Shown in pieces: positions 3,762 to 21,779 of a DNA stretch of 35,143 nucleotides. A program made the position numbers and the translations under genes. The DNA is taken from positions 1 to 35,143 of IMG/VR virus record IMGVR_UViG_3300033067_001722; one strand, written 5' to 3'. Origin of the DNA: a virus (taxonomy: Duplodnaviria > Caudoviricetes). The stretch's first letter is position 1. The number at the start of each line of letters is the position of its first letter. The notes under the pieces were generated by a model, which worked only from the letters and a program-made list of their open reading frames with translations, was not told where the DNA came from and searched no databases.

Positions 3762-3931
3762 TGCCCTGCAGCCCTTTCGAGACGGACTTTAATTAAGGCT
3801 TCCTTTTGCTCAGGAGTTTTCTGCTGCTCCCATTCAGTTTTGCTAATGCCGAATCGGATGCCGATGAGAAGCATATCTCGCTCCCCGATGTTATTTTCAA
3901 CATACTCCCGCAGGTCTGATTCAATAGTCAT
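3743..3931 (-). CDS. Hypothetical protein
   Basis: Start MTIESDLREY overlaps the polymerase stop (ATGA). 62 aa. Confidence 0.55.
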   Translation of the reverse strand: MTIESDLREYVENNIGERDMLLIGIRFGISKTEWEQQKTPEQKEALIKVRLERAAGQWRYYK

Positions 3932-6366
3932 TTGCAATGCCCCCAACTCTGCGTTGAGCAATTAATCCCCACCGGAATAATCAATGGCTCCGGGTATGGA
4001 ACCACAATCTGCGAAAGGGACCGAAGCTTCTCAACCTCTTCATCCCGTTTAGACGTAAGAAACTGCCCCGCCAGGGAATCGTGGACTTGGATAAGCAGTT
4101 GAATAGAAGTTTCGCCAGCTTGTTCCGCCCCATCGATCGCCACGAGGGCGCGGTTAATAACGCCTGCAACGGTGCTCTGCGGTAGCCAGCCGAGAAGTTC
4201 TGGAAGATTAACACGTCCGAGTGTATAAAGCCGCGCGCCGAAAAGGTTCTCAACATAGCCTCGCTTCGATGCAGCTTCTTCCGTGCGGAGGTGCCAGCGT
4301 TTGACACCCGGGTGCGCGGCAAACCAGTTAGCCCTGAAGCGGCTGGCTTCGTGTACTGTAATACCAAGTGCCTGAGCAAGCTTTCTATCCCCGACACCGT
4401 AATTCGTGGCATGAACGCCGACCTTTGCCTTACCGCGGAAGGCTTCACCGATCTTCGCGCGGTGGTCTTTATAGTTTGGATGACTTTCCGCGAGTTCTTC
4501 ATAGGGGATGGATTTGATGTTGAAAATATCGCAGGCGTTCATGCAGTGCATGTCGATACCGCCGCGGAGGGCCTTTTTTAGCGGGGCGTCATCACATTCC
4601 CAGACGACGACTTGAAGGTCAGCGCGGTCCAGATCCATATCGAAAAAGGTGTATCCGGGATCTGGGATGAATAGCTTTCGTATGTTTGGCAAATGGATGT
4701 AGTCTTTGTCCTTGATTTTTGCCTTTTCCGCAACGGGGATGTTTTGTAGATTCATGCCACTCCCAAAAGCATTTTCGGAAGAGGAGAAGCGGAAGGTTGT
4801 TGGCCCAGCGATGGAGAATGAGCAGCGCATTCGGCCATCGGCGTCTAACTTCGCGTCGATAAAGGTACTTAGGAAGACGCCGATAGAACGCAGTTCCACG
4901 ATAAGTTGACATACACGTTTTAGCATTGGCTCCCGCTCGGCGATTAGGGCCATAGCGGGAGAATTGGTTGTGAGGGAGTCCCCGGCGAGGTTTTTTACCC
5001 CTGGGATACCGAGATCGGTGTAGAAGAACTTCGATAGCTGCGCCGGGGATTTTGGGTTTAGCTCATGCCCAACAAGATAGTTCAACTGGTCCTGGCGATT
5101 AAGCCCAGCTTCGATTAACTCCCGGCGCAGTCCTTCCCGTTGGGGAGTATCGATGCGAATCCCCCGGTTCATCATCCGAAGGACAGGGAAGAAAAGCCGC
5201 TGCTGGAAACACGCATGGGAGAAATGCCTCTCCCCGCGCTCTAGGGCTTGTTCCCAAATCTCCGGCCAGATTTCCCAGGTGATGCAGGAATCCTTGCAGT
5301 TATAGGTCCAGTATTGCTTCTCCCCGATGGATGGGTCCCATTCCTTAATCTCGTCTTTCCAGTAGATGTGGTCCTGGGAATACATCGCGGAGAGGAAGTC
5401 CAGCCCCTTCCGCATATTCGAGAAGCAGGAATGGTGCCCGATCATTGTGTCGTAGACGGACGAGGGGACAATTCCCCAATGGCGCCAGAAATACTGGCAA
5501 TCGTAGAGGTAATTCTGCCCGACGGAATCGACGGCCGGGTGCATGAACAGCCGGGCGATTTTATGAACGATTACCGCTTCTTCTTCGGGGGTCCAGTAAA
5601 ACGGCTTAGAATCATCCACCGTGAGGAAGGGGAGACAAATGGCTTCGGTTGCGCTCCAGGCGATTCCGAGGCAGGCGATATGGCCCCCTCGGGTTTCCAA
5701 GTCGGGGGCAATTCTAAAGCGAGAATGGGAACTTTGCGCGAGGTCAGCTTGCTCGATAAGGGCATCGAGCCAGTATACAGCCTGAGCAAAGGTCGGTTCG
5801 ATGATGAAGTCATAATCGCGGCTTAGTTGGGTTCCCTCGAAAAGAGCTTTCGCCCTGGCGAGGTCGATTTGGAGAATATGGCTCTGCGAGGGGTCACGGA
5901 CGAGGCCACGGGGGTGGATCGTCGGGAGGACCGTCCAGGGCTTCCCGGTCATGCCAAGGCGGCTTCCGCGCCATTTGGTGATGCCCCGGTGGCCTGTGGC
6001 GACCCATAGGCCGAGTTCCCCCAGGGTGATGACGAGGGATGGATTCACCCGAGCGAGAGTCTCATCCAGAACCCGTTTCCGGGCGGCTAGCTCCGGGGAA
6101 ACCCACGTCCCATTCGCGTTTTCCCAAGCTGGTCCGGGGCAGGTCTTTCGCTTCGAGAGGTGGATATCGATATCGTCGTCAGGGGGAGTTGTCTCCAGAA
6201 CTGAGATAACGAAACAGTTATTCTTGAGCAATCCTTTCCTCGATAAAAGATCGAAGAAAAGCCCCCCGGCGTAATCGCTCAGGGGGCTCTGTGCGGACCG
6301 CTCGGCGTTGCTCGGGAAATCGGTGATGATTACAATCCGGGCATCAGGTGGTCCGAGGGTTTTCAT
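3928..6366 (-). CDS. polA: Family A DNA polymerase with N-terminal UDG-like domain and 3'-5' exonuclease
   Basis: UDG-like LVITLGELGL...PTIHP. Exo motifs DLET, GQNYLYD and YNCKD. Pol motifs RFSSS...NLQNIP, DMDLDRADLQVV (A), RGKAKVGVHATNYG (B) and LIQVHDSL (C). Confidence 0.93.
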   Translation of the reverse strand: MKTLGPPDARIVIITDFPSNAERSAQSPLSDYAGGLFFDLLSRKGLLKNNCFVISVLETTPPDDDIDIHLSKRKTCPGPAWENANGTWVSPELAARKRVLDETLARVNPSLVITLGELGLWVATGHRGITKWRGSRLGMTGKPWTVLPTIHPRGLVRDPSQSHILQIDLARAKALFEGTQLSRDYDFIIEPTFAQAVYWLDALIEQADLAQSSHSRFRIAPDLETRGGHIACLGIAWSATEAICLPFLTVDDSKPFYWTPEEEAVIVHKIARLFMHPAVDSVGQNYLYDCQYFWRHWGIVPSSVYDTMIGHHSCFSNMRKGLDFLSAMYSQDHIYWKDEIKEWDPSIGEKQYWTYNCKDSCITWEIWPEIWEQALERGERHFSHACFQQRLFFPVLRMMNRGIRIDTPQREGLRRELIEAGLNRQDQLNYLVGHELNPKSPAQLSKFFYTDLGIPGVKNLAGDSLTTNSPAMALIAEREPMLKRVCQLIVELRSIGVFLSTFIDAKLDADGRMRCSFSIAGPTTFRFSSSENAFGSGMNLQNIPVAEKAKIKDKDYIHLPNIRKLFIPDPGYTFFDMDLDRADLQVVVWECDDAPLKKALRGGIDMHCMNACDIFNIKSIPYEELAESHPNYKDHRAKIGEAFRGKAKVGVHATNYGVGDRKLAQALGITVHEASRFRANWFAAHPGVKRWHLRTEEAASKRGYVENLFGARLYTLGRVNLPELLGWLPQSTVAGVINRALVAIDGAEQAGETSIQLLIQVHDSLAGQFLTSKRDEEVEKLRSLSQIVVPYPEPLIIPVGINCSTQSWGHCK

Positions 6367-9542: not shown

Positions 9543-9764
9543 TTACTCCACGACGGGAGGGTCCGGCTGCGCGAAGAATTCCCGTACAGCCCCGGGGAGG
9601 GTTTTAGTGCTGTTCGGGTAATCGTAGGTGTTACCGAGTTCGGCGCAGACGGAAATCGGACCTTCCTCCGGAGCGCCGACGATTCGGTCGACAGTTCCTC
9701 CCATGAGGATAAAGCCGCCGGAAGGAAGTTCGACGATGGTAAGGGTGCGCATGAGTTGTTGCAT
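9543..9764 (-). CDS. Hypothetical protein
   Basis: 73 aa with an AGGAG Shine-Dalgarno, tightly packed with neighbours. Confidence 0.55.
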   Translation of the reverse strand: MQQLMRTLTIVELPSGGFILMGGTVDRIVGAPEEGPISVCAELGNTYDYPNSTKTLPGAVREFFAQPDPPVVE

Positions 9765-17658: not shown

Positions 17659-18480
17659 CTACTTGATCGAAGCCGCTGCGAGTGCCTTTTCGTCGTCCGA
17701 GCCGTTGAGGTTGATAAGTCCAGGTTTCACGAGCCATTCGGGCATGAGCGCATCCCGGGGGCCATAGCCTGACAAAGCAGCGGCAAGAGTGGAATACATA
17801 TTCCGGTCAATTTGAATCGAGAGGGCAGTTGCGAGGCTAGCGATATTCGAGAGGGGGATTTTAATAGAAAGTAGCAGACCCTGCGCGCCATCTTGAGATT
17901 CTGCGAATTTAGACAATTGGTGCAAAGTCAGAGAAACACTGCCGCCGGTTTTTTGGTAGTCCCATGCAGCGCGGGCAATGCGGGAGGTGACTTGCGAGAT
18001 GTATTCAGCGTTTGCACTGGCAGGGTATGACGTGCAAACCTCTAGATTCATCGCAGGCTTGGCGATTTTCGGCCGGTAAACTGCGCTCTGAGGGTGGCCG
18101 GAGAGATAGCGGGGAACGCTCCAGACTCCACCAGAAACCCGATATTCGGGGGTGGAGGCTTTCCCCTTAACATCAAGCTTTGCGAGGGCTTTATCGAAAG
18201 CCTCGTGTGCTTCGGAGGATCGGCCGGAATCGAGAAAGTCTGCGAGGGGTTGTTTTACAAGACCGGTCCAAGAACCTGCCCATGCGTTTTGAATGATCCC
18301 CCGCAGGTTAGAACCGGCTTTGGTAGGGTCTGAAGAGGCTTCGCGGTAGAGGGTGAAGAATTCGGTCAGGGTCCCTTTGAAATGATAGTAGGCGGCATTC
18401 CTTTCAACTTTCCGGGAGTTCCGGACTCGAATGGTTTCGATGGGGAATCGAGTCATGATAGAGGGGGAAAAACGGGCCAT
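17659..18480 (-). CDS. Partner of the AAA_5 ATPase (degenerate vWA/CobT-like)
   Basis: 273 aa directly downstream of the MoxR-type ATPase. GGVWSVPRYLSGHP resembles the motif preceding vWA-like domains in such pairs. No intact MIDAS DxSxS is visible. Confidence 0.55.
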   Translation of the reverse strand: MARFSPSIMTRFPIETIRVRNSRKVERNAAYYHFKGTLTEFFTLYREASSDPTKAGSNLRGIIQNAWAGSWTGLVKQPLADFLDSGRSSEAHEAFDKALAKLDVKGKASTPEYRVSGGVWSVPRYLSGHPQSAVYRPKIAKPAMNLEVCTSYPASANAEYISQVTSRIARAAWDYQKTGGSVSLTLHQLSKFAESQDGAQGLLLSIKIPLSNIASLATALSIQIDRNMYSTLAAALSGYGPRDALMPEWLVKPGLINLNGSDDEKALAAASIK

Positions 18481-18483
18481 GCT

Positions 18484-19812
18484 TTAACCCCTCAGGAAAG
18501 CAACAACAGCCGGAAGGCGGAGGACATCGGCCCAGCATTCAACGAGGGCACCACGCTTGCAGGTGACTTCCAGAACGGTTTCCCGGGCCATGCCTTCATG
18601 AAGGAAGAGGGGACCGCGCCTAACAGCCCGAGCAGTGGCGACAACATCCATTATCTCCCGCTTCTCTGCGAAGGCCCGAACGGCTCGCACGCATTCAAGC
18701 CAGAGGGAATCTCCCCGGGAAAGGTGCGCTTCGATGCGAGGATCGAGATTCCATTCGATGATTGCAAAGCGGTCACGGAACGCGCCATCCATGCGGGACC
18801 GGCCGGAGTATTCCATCGTCGCCCCGGAGCCGTCAGTGTTCCCGCCAGCGATAAGGCGGAAATGAGGGTGCAGGGGAATCGTTGCGTCAGGGAAGGCAAT
18901 GAAACCATTATCCAGAGCATTGACCACTAGCTGCGCATCGGGGGCGGATGCGTCGATTTCATCCCAGAGGAAGGGGTGGCCGAATTCGATAGCTTCCCGG
19001 AAAGGGGTTCGGACATACTCCCCGGTTGCATTCTTGTACCCGAGAAGTGCGAAGGCATCGGAAACCGCGCCGGTAGCGTAGAGGGTGTAATCCGGGCGAT
19101 TGAAATGGACTGCGAGAATGTCCCGAACTTGTTTCCCGGCAGTGGTTTTGCCTGACCCGGCAGGACCCTTGAGGAAGGCTTGTTCTCCGGCTTTCAGAAC
19201 TCGAATGAGTTCGGGCAGTTTCGGGTGGCAAATGCCTTCCACCTTAATCGCTTCCGCAGGGGGAGGGAAGTGAATATGCGTCTCGCCGATGCCCGGGATT
19301 TTTCCCGCTTTCGCGGCTTCGATAACGAGGCGCAGGGCCGTTTCCGCGATGGAAGGCGCTGCGGCGGTAATTGCTTCTCCCGCGATTTTCCGGGCTTGGT
19401 TTTGGGTGCAGTAGTCGGAGCGAACGCTATCAAGGTCGGAGCGTAGTCCCCCGATGCTTCGCAAAGCCCGGTCGATACTCTCGCGGAGGGTTTCGAGTTC
19501 GGGACTATTGCGCTCTGAGTTAGACCCATTGCGCTCCGCTGCGCTCGCCGCTGGCGCGGGAGTATCGTCATCGGTCCAATCTTCCACCTTCGGCGCGGTC
19601 TTTGGGGGAGTGTAGGTAACCCCTCCTACCCGTTGCGCAGTGGCGAGGGTTGCGCTCGCCATCGCGGGATAGTTCATAAGCCGGTCGATAATCTGTGCCT
19701 TGTTCAATTCCCCATTGCGAAACTTCAAGCCAGCGACTCGCGCGGCAGACATTAGGGAGACAACACCTAGCGCTTCCAGTTTGGTGCGGAGTTCGTAGTT
19801 ATCCATGCTCAT
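18484..19812 (-). CDS. MoxR/CobS-like AAA_5 ATPase with N-terminal helical extension
   Basis: Contains GPAGSGKT, LLGY...GEYVRTPF, FLWDEID, HPHFRLIAGGNT and MDGAFRDRF. Confidence 0.88.
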   Translation of the reverse strand: MSMDNYELRTKLEALGVVSLMSAARVAGLKFRNGELNKAQIIDRLMNYPAMASATLATAQRVGGVTYTPPKTAPKVEDWTDDDTPAPAASAAERNGSNSERNSPELETLRESIDRALRSIGGLRSDLDSVRSDYCTQNQARKIAGEAITAAAPSIAETALRLVIEAAKAGKIPGIGETHIHFPPPAEAIKVEGICHPKLPELIRVLKAGEQAFLKGPAGSGKTTAGKQVRDILAVHFNRPDYTLYATGAVSDAFALLGYKNATGEYVRTPFREAIEFGHPFLWDEIDASAPDAQLVVNALDNGFIAFPDATIPLHPHFRLIAGGNTDGSGATMEYSGRSRMDGAFRDRFAIIEWNLDPRIEAHLSRGDSLWLECVRAVRAFAEKREIMDVVATARAVRRGPLFLHEGMARETVLEVTCKRGALVECWADVLRLPAVVAFLRG

Positions 19813-20015
19813 GCCCCCGCCTTGCAGAATTCGACCATATGACGCGCGGTAGCAATCGCATCCCGCCGATCATCCGTGAAGTAATCCGCATCGGGGAATG
19901 CCTCCCCGTGGATATACAGCCGGCATCGATATTCACCAAGATCGGCGCACTTCGTGATCTTCACATGCTTTACCGCATTCACATGGGGGACGATGGTTAC
20001 AAGTCGATATGTCAT
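19809..20015 (-). CDS. Hypothetical early protein
   Basis: 68 aa with EYRCRLY...ADYFTDD..DA..TA and an ATGA overlap. Confidence 0.7.
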   Translation of the reverse strand: MTYRLVTIVPHVNAVKHVKITKCADLGEYRCRLYIHGEAFPDADYFTDDRRDAIATARHMVEFCKAGA

Positions 20016-20026
20016 GACCTACCCCC

Positions 20027-20173
20027 TTAGATAGTTTGCATGTGAATAACTACCGCTTCAATTCGCGAATCCGGGAAGACACTCCCGAAATGTGCGGCGG
20101 CCGCATAGTGGGCAAAAAATGCAGTTTGAAGCCCGAGCACGTCGCTTGTGTAGGTCACTTGATAGGCAATCAT
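20027..20173 (-). CDS. Hypothetical early protein (first gene of the left arm)
   Basis: AGGAG Shine-Dalgarno before MIAYQVTY. 48 aa. Confidence 0.55.
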   Translation of the reverse strand: MIAYQVTYTSDVLGLQTAFFAHYAAAAHFGSVFPDSRIEAVVIHMQTI

Positions 20174-20224
20174 CACTCTTCTCCTATTCCCGGGGAGACC
20201 ATCTCCCCTTCGTGCTTCTACACA

Positions 20225-20917
20225 TGCAACCCCCATGCCAGCCTAAAAACCGCCCTTTTTCCCCTACCCCGCAAAAACCGTGCCTGAAAACTGCCAAAAT
20301 CTGTCACTTCCCGGGAAATTCCCCCGACACTTCTCGGCGCAAAGTGACAAAACTCGCCGCAGCATGCAGGAAATGTGCCAGGTATTCCCGTGCGGAGCGC
20401 ACGTTGTGCAGGGTTGCCCGTGCTTCCGTTCTTCCGTTACTCGGGACCCCGCGTGTGTCCCTATGTCCTACTAGGGTATGGGGGTATTCCTCTCCCCTGC
20501 AAGGAGCGTGCCAACCTCCCTCTGTCAAGCACTGTTACGTCTTGTTACAAATAAAAAAAATTAGGACACTACCCCCTGAGAGTGCATATCCCTATACCTG
20601 ACTAGGATATAAGGTCACTATGGGGGGGGTCGTTTACTGGAAGAACGGAAGGTCGGGGAAATGCGCACAATCCCCGGGAAGGGGTCTAGGCGGGCGATAG
20701 GGGAAATTCCCGGGGAGAGGCTACCCCCATAGCGGGAAGGGCCAGCGTGCAGACAGGCGGGCCGCTAGGCCCCTGCATGGGCATCCGCGAAGCGGAGGGG
20801 GCTGATGCTCCCTCGGCGCAGCCGAGGCCGCTAGCATACAAAGCGCGCGCCCGCGCGTAGCAGGAAGCGTGCCAACCCTTCTCCCCTGCAATTCCCATGC
20901 CATCAAGATTCGTGCCA
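20225..20917 (-). promoter_or_regulatory. Array of seven sigma54 (-24/-12) promoter motifs
   Basis: Minus-strand 16-mers matching TGGCACG-N4-TTGCW at 20225-20240, 20270-20285, 20365-20380, 20498-20513, 20859-20874, 20887-20902 and 20902-20917. Confidence 0.8.
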
Positions 20918-20921
20918 GTTC

Positions 20922-20946
20922 AATGCGAATGAGAACGATTCGCATT
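20922..20946. promoter_or_regulatory. Fur-box-like palindrome
   Basis: AATGCGAAT-GAGAACG-ATTCGCATT. The central 19-mer matches GATAATGATAATCATTATC at 12 of 19 positions. Confidence 0.5.
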
Positions 20947-21033
20947 TCTCCCCGTGGGGGAAAATCCTTCCCAAACCCCCGGGGGTATTCCCCAGTTGCC
21001 GGGGTGCCTGGGGTGGGGGTTTAGCCGAGGCTA

Positions 21034-21090
21034 TCCAATGACAGTGATTTTTAGCCTCGAAACTCCAATGACAGTGATTTTGGGCTTCAA
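21034..21090. repeat. 30-bp-period tandem repeat
   Basis: TCCAATGACAGTGATTTT is identical at 21034-21051 and 21064-21081, and the tails are similar. Confidence 0.85.
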
Positions 21091-21105
21091 ATTTGAACGC
21101 TCCTC

Positions 21106-21133
21106 TTGATTTCGGGGAAAAGACTGGTATTGT
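21106..21133 (+). promoter_or_regulatory. Possible sigma70-type promoter for the late arm
   Basis: TTGATT-16 nt-TATTGT with an extended -10 TG, followed by AGGAG and the ATG at 21156. Confidence 0.4.
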
Positions 21134-21155
21134 CCGAAGATTAGGAGATGCCCTC

Positions 21156-21779
21156 ATGGCCGCGACGCAGATTAAGAAGGTCCGATATACCACCGATGCG
21201 GTGATTGACGTGATTTTGACGAATCCGTCGATTTCCCAGGGGGAATTGGCCGAGATGTTTGGGTATACCCAGACATGGATTTCGATTATTATCAACTCCG
21301 ATGCCTTCAAAAATCGGCTTGCGGAGCGAAAAGGCCAATTAATCGATCCCCAAATCACGGCTTCCGTGGAGGAACGGCTTGAAGCCCTGGGAAAAGCCTC
21401 CCTCGACCGCCTTCTCGACCGTGTGAATAGCTCCGTCCCCCTCAAACCCCTCGAACTCGTCGCAATGGCGAAACTCGGGGTCGGAAATCGCGCGGATAAG
21501 CCCGTCGCCCCGCAGCAGCAAAACAACCTCTACGTCCTTTCCATGCCTGCGCCTGCGGCCTCTTCGAAAGAATGGCTCTCCCAGGCCCGCCGGCCCCCGG
21601 GGGATGTCGTCGAAATGGAAAAAACCGACCGGGGGTTTACTCCTCCTGTAGAAATTTTGGAGGCGACCGCAGGTCGCAGCGGCAGTACGATGAATGGCAC
21701 TCTCGCGGAACGCACAGGTCCTTCCGATCTGTATACTATTCCGAAAAAGCTCGCCACCTTCCCCCGGAAAGACGCATAA
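21156..21779 (+). CDS. HTH protein, putative terminase small subunit
   Basis: ILTNPSISQGELAEMFGYTQTWISIII is an HTH, followed by a helical region and QQQNNLYV. First gene of the late arm. Confidence 0.55.
   Translation: MAATQIKKVRYTTDAVIDVILTNPSISQGELAEMFGYTQTWISIIINSDAFKNRLAERKGQLIDPQITASVEERLEALGKASLDRLLDRVNSSVPLKPLELVAMAKLGVGNRADKPVAPQQQNNLYVLSMPAPAASSKEWLSQARRPPGDVVEMEKTDRGFTPPVEILEATAGRSGSTMNGTLAERTGPSDLYTIPKKLATFPRKDA

Follow-up and report, generated by a model that had tools for sequence, protein, structure and literature searches.

Sigma-54 sites in the control gap of a tailed phage, one of which resembles the promoters of bacterial pilin genes

Why should a phage gather, within 700 bp, seven -24/-12 sites for the sigma-54 RNA polymerase of its host, an enzyme described as staying closed until an activator remodels its complex (PMC5095919)? 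The DNA that raises the question, which we call the window, is a 35,143-base virus record from a tailed phage, with an Mx8-like capsid protein, a portal, a terminase and a family A DNA polymerase (3928-6366) fused at its N-terminus to a uracil-DNA glycosylase-like domain. Complete relatives measure 40-43 kb, so that part of the genome must be missing from these 35.1 kb. The early and replication genes are read leftward, starting at about 20176, and a putative small terminase at 21156 opens the late arm, which is read rightward; the seven sites fall between the two arms, in what is the control gap of a podovirus. Its main features are as follows.

20027..20176, minus strand: first early open reading frame, 48-49 amino acids, no assigned function
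20225..20240, minus strand: gene-proximal sigma-54 -24/-12 site, with GG and GC at fixed spacing; predicted early promoter, predicted +1 at 20214
20270..20285, minus strand: weaker sigma-54 site, between a predicted activator box and the promoter, in the place taken by an IHF box in relatives
20365..20380, minus strand: sigma-54 site, its end 4 bp from the second of two palindromes listed below
20498..20513, minus strand: consensus ('perfect') sigma-54 site, not retained in close strains
20859..20917, minus strand: terS-side trio of sigma-54 sites (20917-20902, 20902-20887 and 20874-20859), their starts separated by 15 and 28 bp, with no gene following
21106..21133, plus strand: sigma-70-like promoter of terS; 47 of 76 loci have such a site 5' of terS, where two control windows gave 7 and 5
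21156..21779, plus strand: putative small terminase (terS), first gene of the late arm; its homologue lies immediately 5' of the large terminase in MW202489

All seven of the minus-strand 16-mers named in a preliminary description of this DNA are present where it placed them. The filter used to find them allows at most two mismatches to TGGCACG-N4-TTGCW, which we take to be the sigma-54 consensus, with GG and G fixed. It returns seven sites on one strand within 700 bp, whereas the largest cluster in 300 dinucleotide shuffles of the window holds two, and none of 2000 shuffles of the local region (20001-21150) exceeded two: the cluster is far beyond chance. When both strands of the whole window are scanned, only four further sites pass the filter, all isolated and all on the plus strand. 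The array had also been said to be no simple tandem repeat. This is true of the spacers, which differ, and only partly true of the flanks: some are shared between sites (18 nt at 89% between 20499-20516 and 20860-20877, plus a 23-nt family of three copies), showing that local duplication played a part.

Relatives were gathered from viral, metagenome and genome collections through homologues of TerS (the putative protein 21156..21779 has itself no match in Pfam or PHROG). This gave 93 loci with a terS match, the window included, reduced to 81 by removal of near-duplicates, 79 of which have more than 100 bp upstream. Relatives with 32-94% TerS identity retain sigma-54 sites at this location, between terS and the early genes, and they do so at the sigma-54 spacing only. 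In the 79 upstream regions, spacer N4 yields 60 sites in 32 regions against a shuffle mean of 1.3, while N2, N3, N5 and N6 yield 1, 4, 3 and 1; these loci are related, and the counts take no account of kinship. The surmise that the sigma-54 recognition code itself is under selection is supported by this result. Among 63 held-out loci, not previously inspected, 20 contain 29 sites (1.05 expected), and in five whole relatives 11 of the 14 sites with at most one mismatch fall in the gap. The remaining 47 of the 79 upstream regions, many of them short, have no site; the cultured or deposited distant relatives MW202489, OP596615, MW291508, PP438425 and MF497422 have no array and 0-2 scattered sites each. 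Orientation toward the early genes, first noticed in the window where it applies to all seven sites, holds less strictly across the family (of 78 sites, 61 face the early arm and 17 the opposite way). Mutual exclusion between sigma-54 and strong sigma-70 sites is not significant (p = 0.25). Could the motif be bound by a phage protein, or be neutral debris of duplication? This is scarcely credible. Flanks shared between sites and the loss of one site in close strains would fit such an origin, but the family logo, TGGCAYG-N4-TTGCW (from sites chosen with that consensus), leaves the spacer free, N4 alone is enriched, and the same arrangement of site and upstream palindrome is found in bacterial chromosomes, as described below.

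Close strains were available as X2-X5, which are runs from two studies. The X3 and X4 contigs match the window up to 20214/20213, that is, up to the predicted +1, and then continue with a different leader; judging from such breakpoints, first genes seem to have been swapped behind a fixed promoter in the X3, X4 and X5 strains. The segment with the site at 20498-20513 is replaced in X3 and X4, and X5 diverges at 20483. This site, rightly called perfect for its match to the consensus, is therefore dispensable; the other six show no change among the rows listed in this comparison. Beyond about 20200-20450, depth is greater in X2-X5, with a peak at 20599-20719 in X4 and X5, and it is flat in X1, contig depth being a measure that cannot show ends. 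In X4, 265 other letters replace 20006-20170.

The seven sites are not equivalent, and only the gene-proximal one looks like a true enhancer-dependent promoter, a status that we hold to be highly probable for 20240-20225. The first base of this site lies 64 nt from the first start codon backed by a ribosome-binding site (RBS). In 10 of 22 loci of the family (1.65 expected) the last site lies 50-85 nt 5' of such a start, a range that was set after the distances had been seen and outside which the other 12 loci fall. Upstream of the window's site are two palindromes.

20291..20307, no strand: GACA-N5-TGTC palindrome centred at -85, predicted PilR-type activator box; best site in the window, 19.9 bits, by a matrix of pilin promoters
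20344..20360, no strand: second GACA-N5-TGTC palindrome, centred at -138 (about -93 from the site 20285-20270); second best site in the window, 13.6 bits

The family was represented by 13 gene-proximal promoters, namely the ten with the 50-85 nt distance and three (L047, L081, L011) added by eye. Of their 13 upstream windows, 6 contain GACA-N5-TGTC, with 11 copies in all, against 0.6 in controls and 0-1 for other spacers, with copies often 20-23 bp apart; at a looser threshold the palindrome is enriched only 3-7-fold, other spacers giving 0.5-5. TGTC-N9-GACA is found seven times upstream of the same 13 sites (0.8 in controls). The Pseudomonas aeruginosa-type pattern TGT-N11-ACA has seven matches in 6 of the 13 windows (0.8 in controls), and is weak in our window and clear in L013, L042 and L047. 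An IHF box separates enhancer and promoter in 9 of the 22 listed loci, the relatives' boxes lying at -37 to -84, whereas the window has no IHF consensus box at up to one mismatch. With the consensus of PMC2709558, 7 of 16 IHF boxes lie 10-60 nt upstream of a sigma-54 site (0.73 expected), three of them at -52.

Where else does this layout occur? A cassette derived from the phages, consisting of a sigma-54 site with GACA-N5-TGTC upstream, was searched for in 352 bacterial genomes belonging to two phyla. It gave 19 matches, 15 of which precede type IV pilin-like genes and four of which do not. The phylum around G008 (Archangium; 201 genomes) contributed 13 matches in 10 genomes, the reversed control giving none; ten precede a pilin, nine by Pfam and one by a pilin-like start cut by the end of the locus. 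The phylum around G007 (Phycisphaeraceae; 151 genomes) contributed six, with none in the control, and five of these precede prepilin-like starts as read from translations. Conversely, 30 loci fetched by pilin family gave 34 pilin starts, 20 of them with a sigma-54 site; GACA-N5-TGTC is present 19 times in 16 of these 20 promoters (other spacers 0-4), and TGT-N11-ACA fits six. A matrix built from 18 of the 20 ranks the two palindromes of the window first and second in its whole length and reaches at least 8 bits in 10 of the 13 family promoters against 1 of 62 control windows; it is partly circular, because its sites were picked with the phage-derived half-site, and three of the 20 promoters of the set are also cassette matches of the G008 phylum. 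The window's -85 box shares 15 of 17 bases with the box that precedes pilin genes in L173, L175 and L176. The pilin promoters compared come from the two phyla only, with Proteobacteria outside the sample, and a pilin search of plasmids found nothing.

The boxes thus likely point to a pilin regulator of the PilR type as their predicted binder, PilR being named because pilin genes lie downstream of the bacterial boxes. In P. aeruginosa and Myxococcus xanthus, pilA is known to be switched on by PilR (PMC6058289, PMC6211767), and Npa activates pilin expression in commensal Neisseria (PMC6528607). The published consensus for P. aeruginosa PilR is TGT-N11-ACA, not GACA-N5-TGTC (PMC8035640), and we found in the accessible literature no account of GACA-N5-TGTC as a PilR site or in company with sigma-54. 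Major type IV pilin promoters (pilA in P. aeruginosa and M. xanthus; pilE in commensal Neisseria, with RpoN, IHF and Npa, PMC6528607) share with the phage the -24/-12 site and the upstream palindromes at about -75 to -140 and, with its relatives, the intervening IHF box. Unlike them, the cassette sits on a phage, where it heads small early genes; in the window it has no IHF consensus and is accompanied by additional sigma-54 sites beside the boxes.

Our preferred reading, which we regard as probable, is that the gene-proximal site and the two palindromes copy the layout of a pilin promoter and would form an early promoter fired by the host sigma-54 polymerase with an active PilR-type activator. 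It starts from what is observed, that is, the sites with their spacing and conservation, the palindromes, the match to pilin promoters and a sequenced part devoid of any activator gene. Because the layout is that of a pilin promoter, firing would likely be restricted to times when the PilR-type activator of the host is active. Sigma-54 holoenzyme would sit as a closed complex at 20240-20225, the activator would bind at -85 and -138, and it would then loop over, with the help of IHF in relatives and without a consensus IHF box here, to open the promoter at about 20214. Infection would start in pilin-making cells, plausibly the very cells to which the phage can adsorb. The sites at 20285 and 20380 would overlap the activator boxes or abut them, and might weaken or adjust firing, while the trio would likely hold docked polymerase and not fire. 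Of the three roles first suggested for the array (a landing pad or sponge for the polymerase, a ratchet or shield for entering DNA, and gating on a host activator), gating is the best supported, for one or two sites rather than seven. The nitrogen or stress activator then envisaged was rejected, as NtrC-, NifA-, CRP- and LexA-type patterns show no clear enrichment in the 79 upstream regions.

The preliminary description had seen no gene for a bacterial enhancer-binding protein, and this is borne out: a sigma-54 activator gene (PF00158, with a GAFTGA loop) is found neither in the window, incomplete as it is, nor in any of five complete relatives. The early arm does encode an ATPase of another kind.

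18484..19812, minus strand: CobS/MoxR-type AAA+ ATPase, not a sigma-54 activator; matches phrog_249 and PF07728, not PF00158

This protein has GYKNATG at the position of the activators' GAFTGA and was rejected as a sigma-54 activator on this ground and for its lack of PF00158. With its long N-terminal extension, it makes up with an adjoining DUF7192-like gene the first large early genes (17659-19812). It might nevertheless be that the promoter, though truly enhancer-dependent, answers to some other host member of the activator family whose box is similar, or to a factor that comes with the virion. We find this improbable. In its favour, four of 19 bacterial matches do not lie before a pilin-like gene, and, the window being incomplete, a virion-borne factor could sit in the missing part. 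A preprint (10.64898/2026.10.06.757011) also puts forward a phage AAA+ protein that lacks GAFTGA as a factor acting on sigma-54 polymerase. Against this, the 15 other matches precede pilin-like genes in two phyla, PF00158 has no match in the five complete relatives, and the AAA+ gene of the window lies behind the promoter and therefore cannot start the first round. As for the host, comparison of the endolysin with plasmids and the homologues of a phosphoesterase named none, and three members of the phage family sit in metagenome-assembled genomes of three different phyla, where mis-binning is possible.

If the gene-proximal site is a PilR-type promoter, as we prefer to think, what are the terS-side sites for? 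Two more features are needed here.

20843..20858, minus strand: CG run over the stretch that would melt behind the site 20874-20859
20404..20670, no strand: long imperfect palindrome, 47-nt arms 70% complementary, with a T tract inside (20551-20561)

G+C behind the site is 0.46 for 10 gene-proximal sites versus 0.66 for 43 other minus-strand sites (p = 0.008), and a CG run follows none of the former versus 17 of the latter; the run also occurs by itself, 16 of its 42 matches having a site directly before them. In the family the terS-side sites stand in tandem at 15 or 18 bp, and a single sigma-54 holoenzyme covers about 30 bp. Clusters equivalent to the trio are found in L006, L021, L022, L023, L025, L026 and L035. 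The top 15 sites of the pilin matrix include no activator box upstream of the trio, and the nearest RBS-backed start lies about 700 nt beyond it. We predict from this arrangement that the trio likely docks polymerase without firing, because it has no activator box, is packed too tightly for polymerases to sit side by side and ends in a CG run; the use of such a dock is the weakest step of our account. A fixed non-coding RNA running from the trio to the T tract was considered and rejected, the order of site and tract differing among relatives.

An alternative would be that the terS-side sites serve packaging or replication, a polymerase bound or firing there marking the concatemer junction for terminase or priming an origin at the long palindrome, by analogy with the packaging promoters of T7. 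This we consider very unlikely. The trio does lie 240-280 bp 5' of terS and is aimed at the long palindrome, scanning the neighbours of 24 distinct unrelated tandem arrays found a terminase at 6, of which five share the divergent layout of the window, and cumulative GC skew turns near 20,000. Yet this skew also tracks gene direction, upstream of the trio there is no activator box, the other 18 arrays have no terminase among the scanned neighbours, and the proposal is silent on the gene-proximal site.

Other boxes crowd the gap. Our labels Fur, DnaA, LexA, SlmA, OmpR, CRP, FNR, NtrC and NifA refer to what we take to be the consensus of each. Fur-, DnaA- and IHF-like boxes surround the terS-side sites. 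In the 63 held-out loci, DnaA boxes number 27 (0.4 expected), OmpR-like boxes 13 (0.2), SlmA-like boxes 8 (0.8) and Fur-like boxes 3-5 (0.2-0.6); IHF patterns are also enriched in the 79 upstream regions, and the sets of boxes vary between relatives. Ordered arrays of DnaA boxes are present in 12 of the 79 loci and absent from the window; in L008, L010, L012, L013 and L039 the gap contains exact DnaA boxes grouped in clusters of 3-6. Tandem sigma-54 sites in L004, L025, L026, L096 and others have beside them a 12-bp palindrome resembling the SlmA box (11 matches in 10 of 79 loci). In the window, 20928..20945 is presumably a Fur-box-like palindrome, and a direct repeat within the long palindrome (20533-20549) resembles what we assume to be an OmpR-type box. 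When 20200-21150 was compared by blastn with 50,697 phage records, 289 matched; all 40 matches listed fall on the Fur-like box, and many T5-like phages are among them. The long palindrome has a z of -4.9 as an RNA fold but of +0.4 when 220 nt with the T tract at their centre are folded as DNA; a T-tract palindrome is common in the family (z of -2 or less in 15 of 28 loci versus 8 of 28 in the control). Nine of 52 contigs of at least 6 kb end 400-800 nt before terS (1.0 expected), a count to which L003, whose record starts at an arbitrary point, and two kin, L070 and L074, contribute. Such ends near the T-tract palindrome may reflect a genome end or an obstacle to assembly.

This abundance invites a different explanation, in which no site fires and the gap is a mosaic of high-affinity boxes for host proteins (sigma-54, PilR-type, Fur, DnaA, IHF, SlmA-like) at or near a genome end or origin, which would hold, shield or ratchet entering DNA, or titrate regulators after amplification, in the manner of the injection-stop region of T5. 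For the gap as a whole we judge it unlikely; it may be right for the terS-side trio alone. The enrichment of DnaA, OmpR-like, SlmA-like and Fur-like boxes in held-out loci, in sets that vary between relatives, speaks for it, as does the excess of contig ends, although these include the arbitrary start and the kin just mentioned and may stem from the T-tract palindrome. Like our gap, the T5 region is a non-coding mosaic of host-protein boxes (10.1101/866236), with DnaA, LexA and Fur consensus boxes, the Fur-like ones in common with the window. However, no sigma-54 site is found there, and the idea that the T5 repeats are sigma-54 sites was rejected on this account; T5 also has 10-kb terminal repeats and two-step entry, whereas the phage of the window is known from contigs. 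A mosaic leaves unexplained the ordered geometry of palindrome, IHF box, promoter and RBS, as well as the breakpoint of close strains at +1. In T5 (AY543070), a LexA consensus box (L150:9411-9426) and four Fur consensus boxes (9553-9708) accompany the DnaA boxes of the injection-stop region, and a second LexA box lies with DnaA boxes at 6121-6228; the accessible part of the preprint (10.1101/866236) discusses DnaA and names neither Fur nor LexA.

The cassette extends well beyond this family. It is present in 78 viral stretches, against 4 with spacer N6, and 36 of 60 distinct viral cassettes have an RBS-backed reading frame close behind, none of them a pilin. The centres of the palindromes are most frequent at -84 to -88 and at -95 to -98, and an IHF-like box lies between palindrome and site in 18 of the 60 (control 2). 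The 31 first genes scanned behind viral cassettes comprise two anti-restriction proteins, one AAA+ protein of the window's family and, for the most part, genes of no known function. That AAA+ protein, of the CobS/MoxR family, is encoded in L222 directly behind the cassette. Exact tandem pairs of sigma-54 sites were counted in 57 viral stretches, 38 of them at an 18-bp period (a raw count with no control pattern), and in none of 61 genomes around G008; a blastn search of two tandem arrays against cultured phages returned chance matches only. Two unrelated phage contigs, L124 and L142, have about 14-17 sigma-54 sites within 600 bp before the terminase module.

We offer a broader proposal, tentative and open to serious doubt: many unrelated lytic phages would check their host first, their first promoter being a copy of a pilin promoter that fires only when PilR and sigma-54 are active, while tandem CG-clamped sites would hold closed complexes, as a guard or marker of the genome end and a means of concentrating holoenzyme, the phage staying silent in a non-piliated cell until the pilus programme resumes. 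The usual view is that early phage promoters are strong and unconditional; a promoter that needs an AAA+ activator of the host would tie the onset of infection to the state of the host. If so, a mutation in pilR or rpoN could stop such phages at two points, the receptor and transcription, which would change how resistance is read, and the tandem CG-clamped sites would make of sigma-54 polymerase a DNA-binding block rather than an enzyme. The cassette is short and searchable, and at least 60 distinct viral contigs carry it, so that it could serve to mark phages linked to pili and give a clue to their hosts.

We found no description of PilR-driven phage promoters or of tandem sigma-54 arrays in phages in a search that covered mainly open literature. 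The nearest works concern CtrA-controlled phages (PMC9437464) and YuA (PMC10914365). In alphaproteobacterial phages that bind pili or flagella, clusters of CtrA sites linked to 'lytic deferment' resemble our gap in that a large intergenic or terminal region is dense in sites for a regulator of appendages, and they too have arisen in unrelated phages (PMC9437464). CtrA has been shown to bind and modulates existing promoters, whereas the factor predicted here is an obligatory AAA+ activator of sigma-54 polymerase, hence an on-switch, unlike CtrA; the accessible text of that paper does not mention sigma-54 or RpoN. Pseudomonas phage YuA (PMC10914365; NC_010116) is similar in having no polymerase of its own and in its reported use of host sigma-54. 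Its annotated -24/-12 promoters differ in being single and in lying in the structural region, with no enhancer or array described in the text available to us (PMC10914365), and the first 50 of its 58.7 kb have no site within one mismatch of the sigma-54 consensus. Three annotated '-24/-12' fragments of YuA (L151:38392-47312) have no plus-strand site closer than four mismatches to this consensus.

Finally, one more element of the gap is shared by many relatives.

20976..21033, no strand: family-conserved block with a C/G palindrome and a short hairpin, at matching positions in many relatives

It is a candidate signal for terminase, packaging or end processing. The stretch 20976-21079, just 5' of terS, combines a 30-bp direct repeat with the short hairpin and the C/G palindrome, about 40 bp apart. 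A palindrome of another kind, 14 bp long and present in three copies in Stenotrophomonas phage BUCT555 (L153:473, 2371 and 37885), matches what we take to be the bacterial parS consensus.
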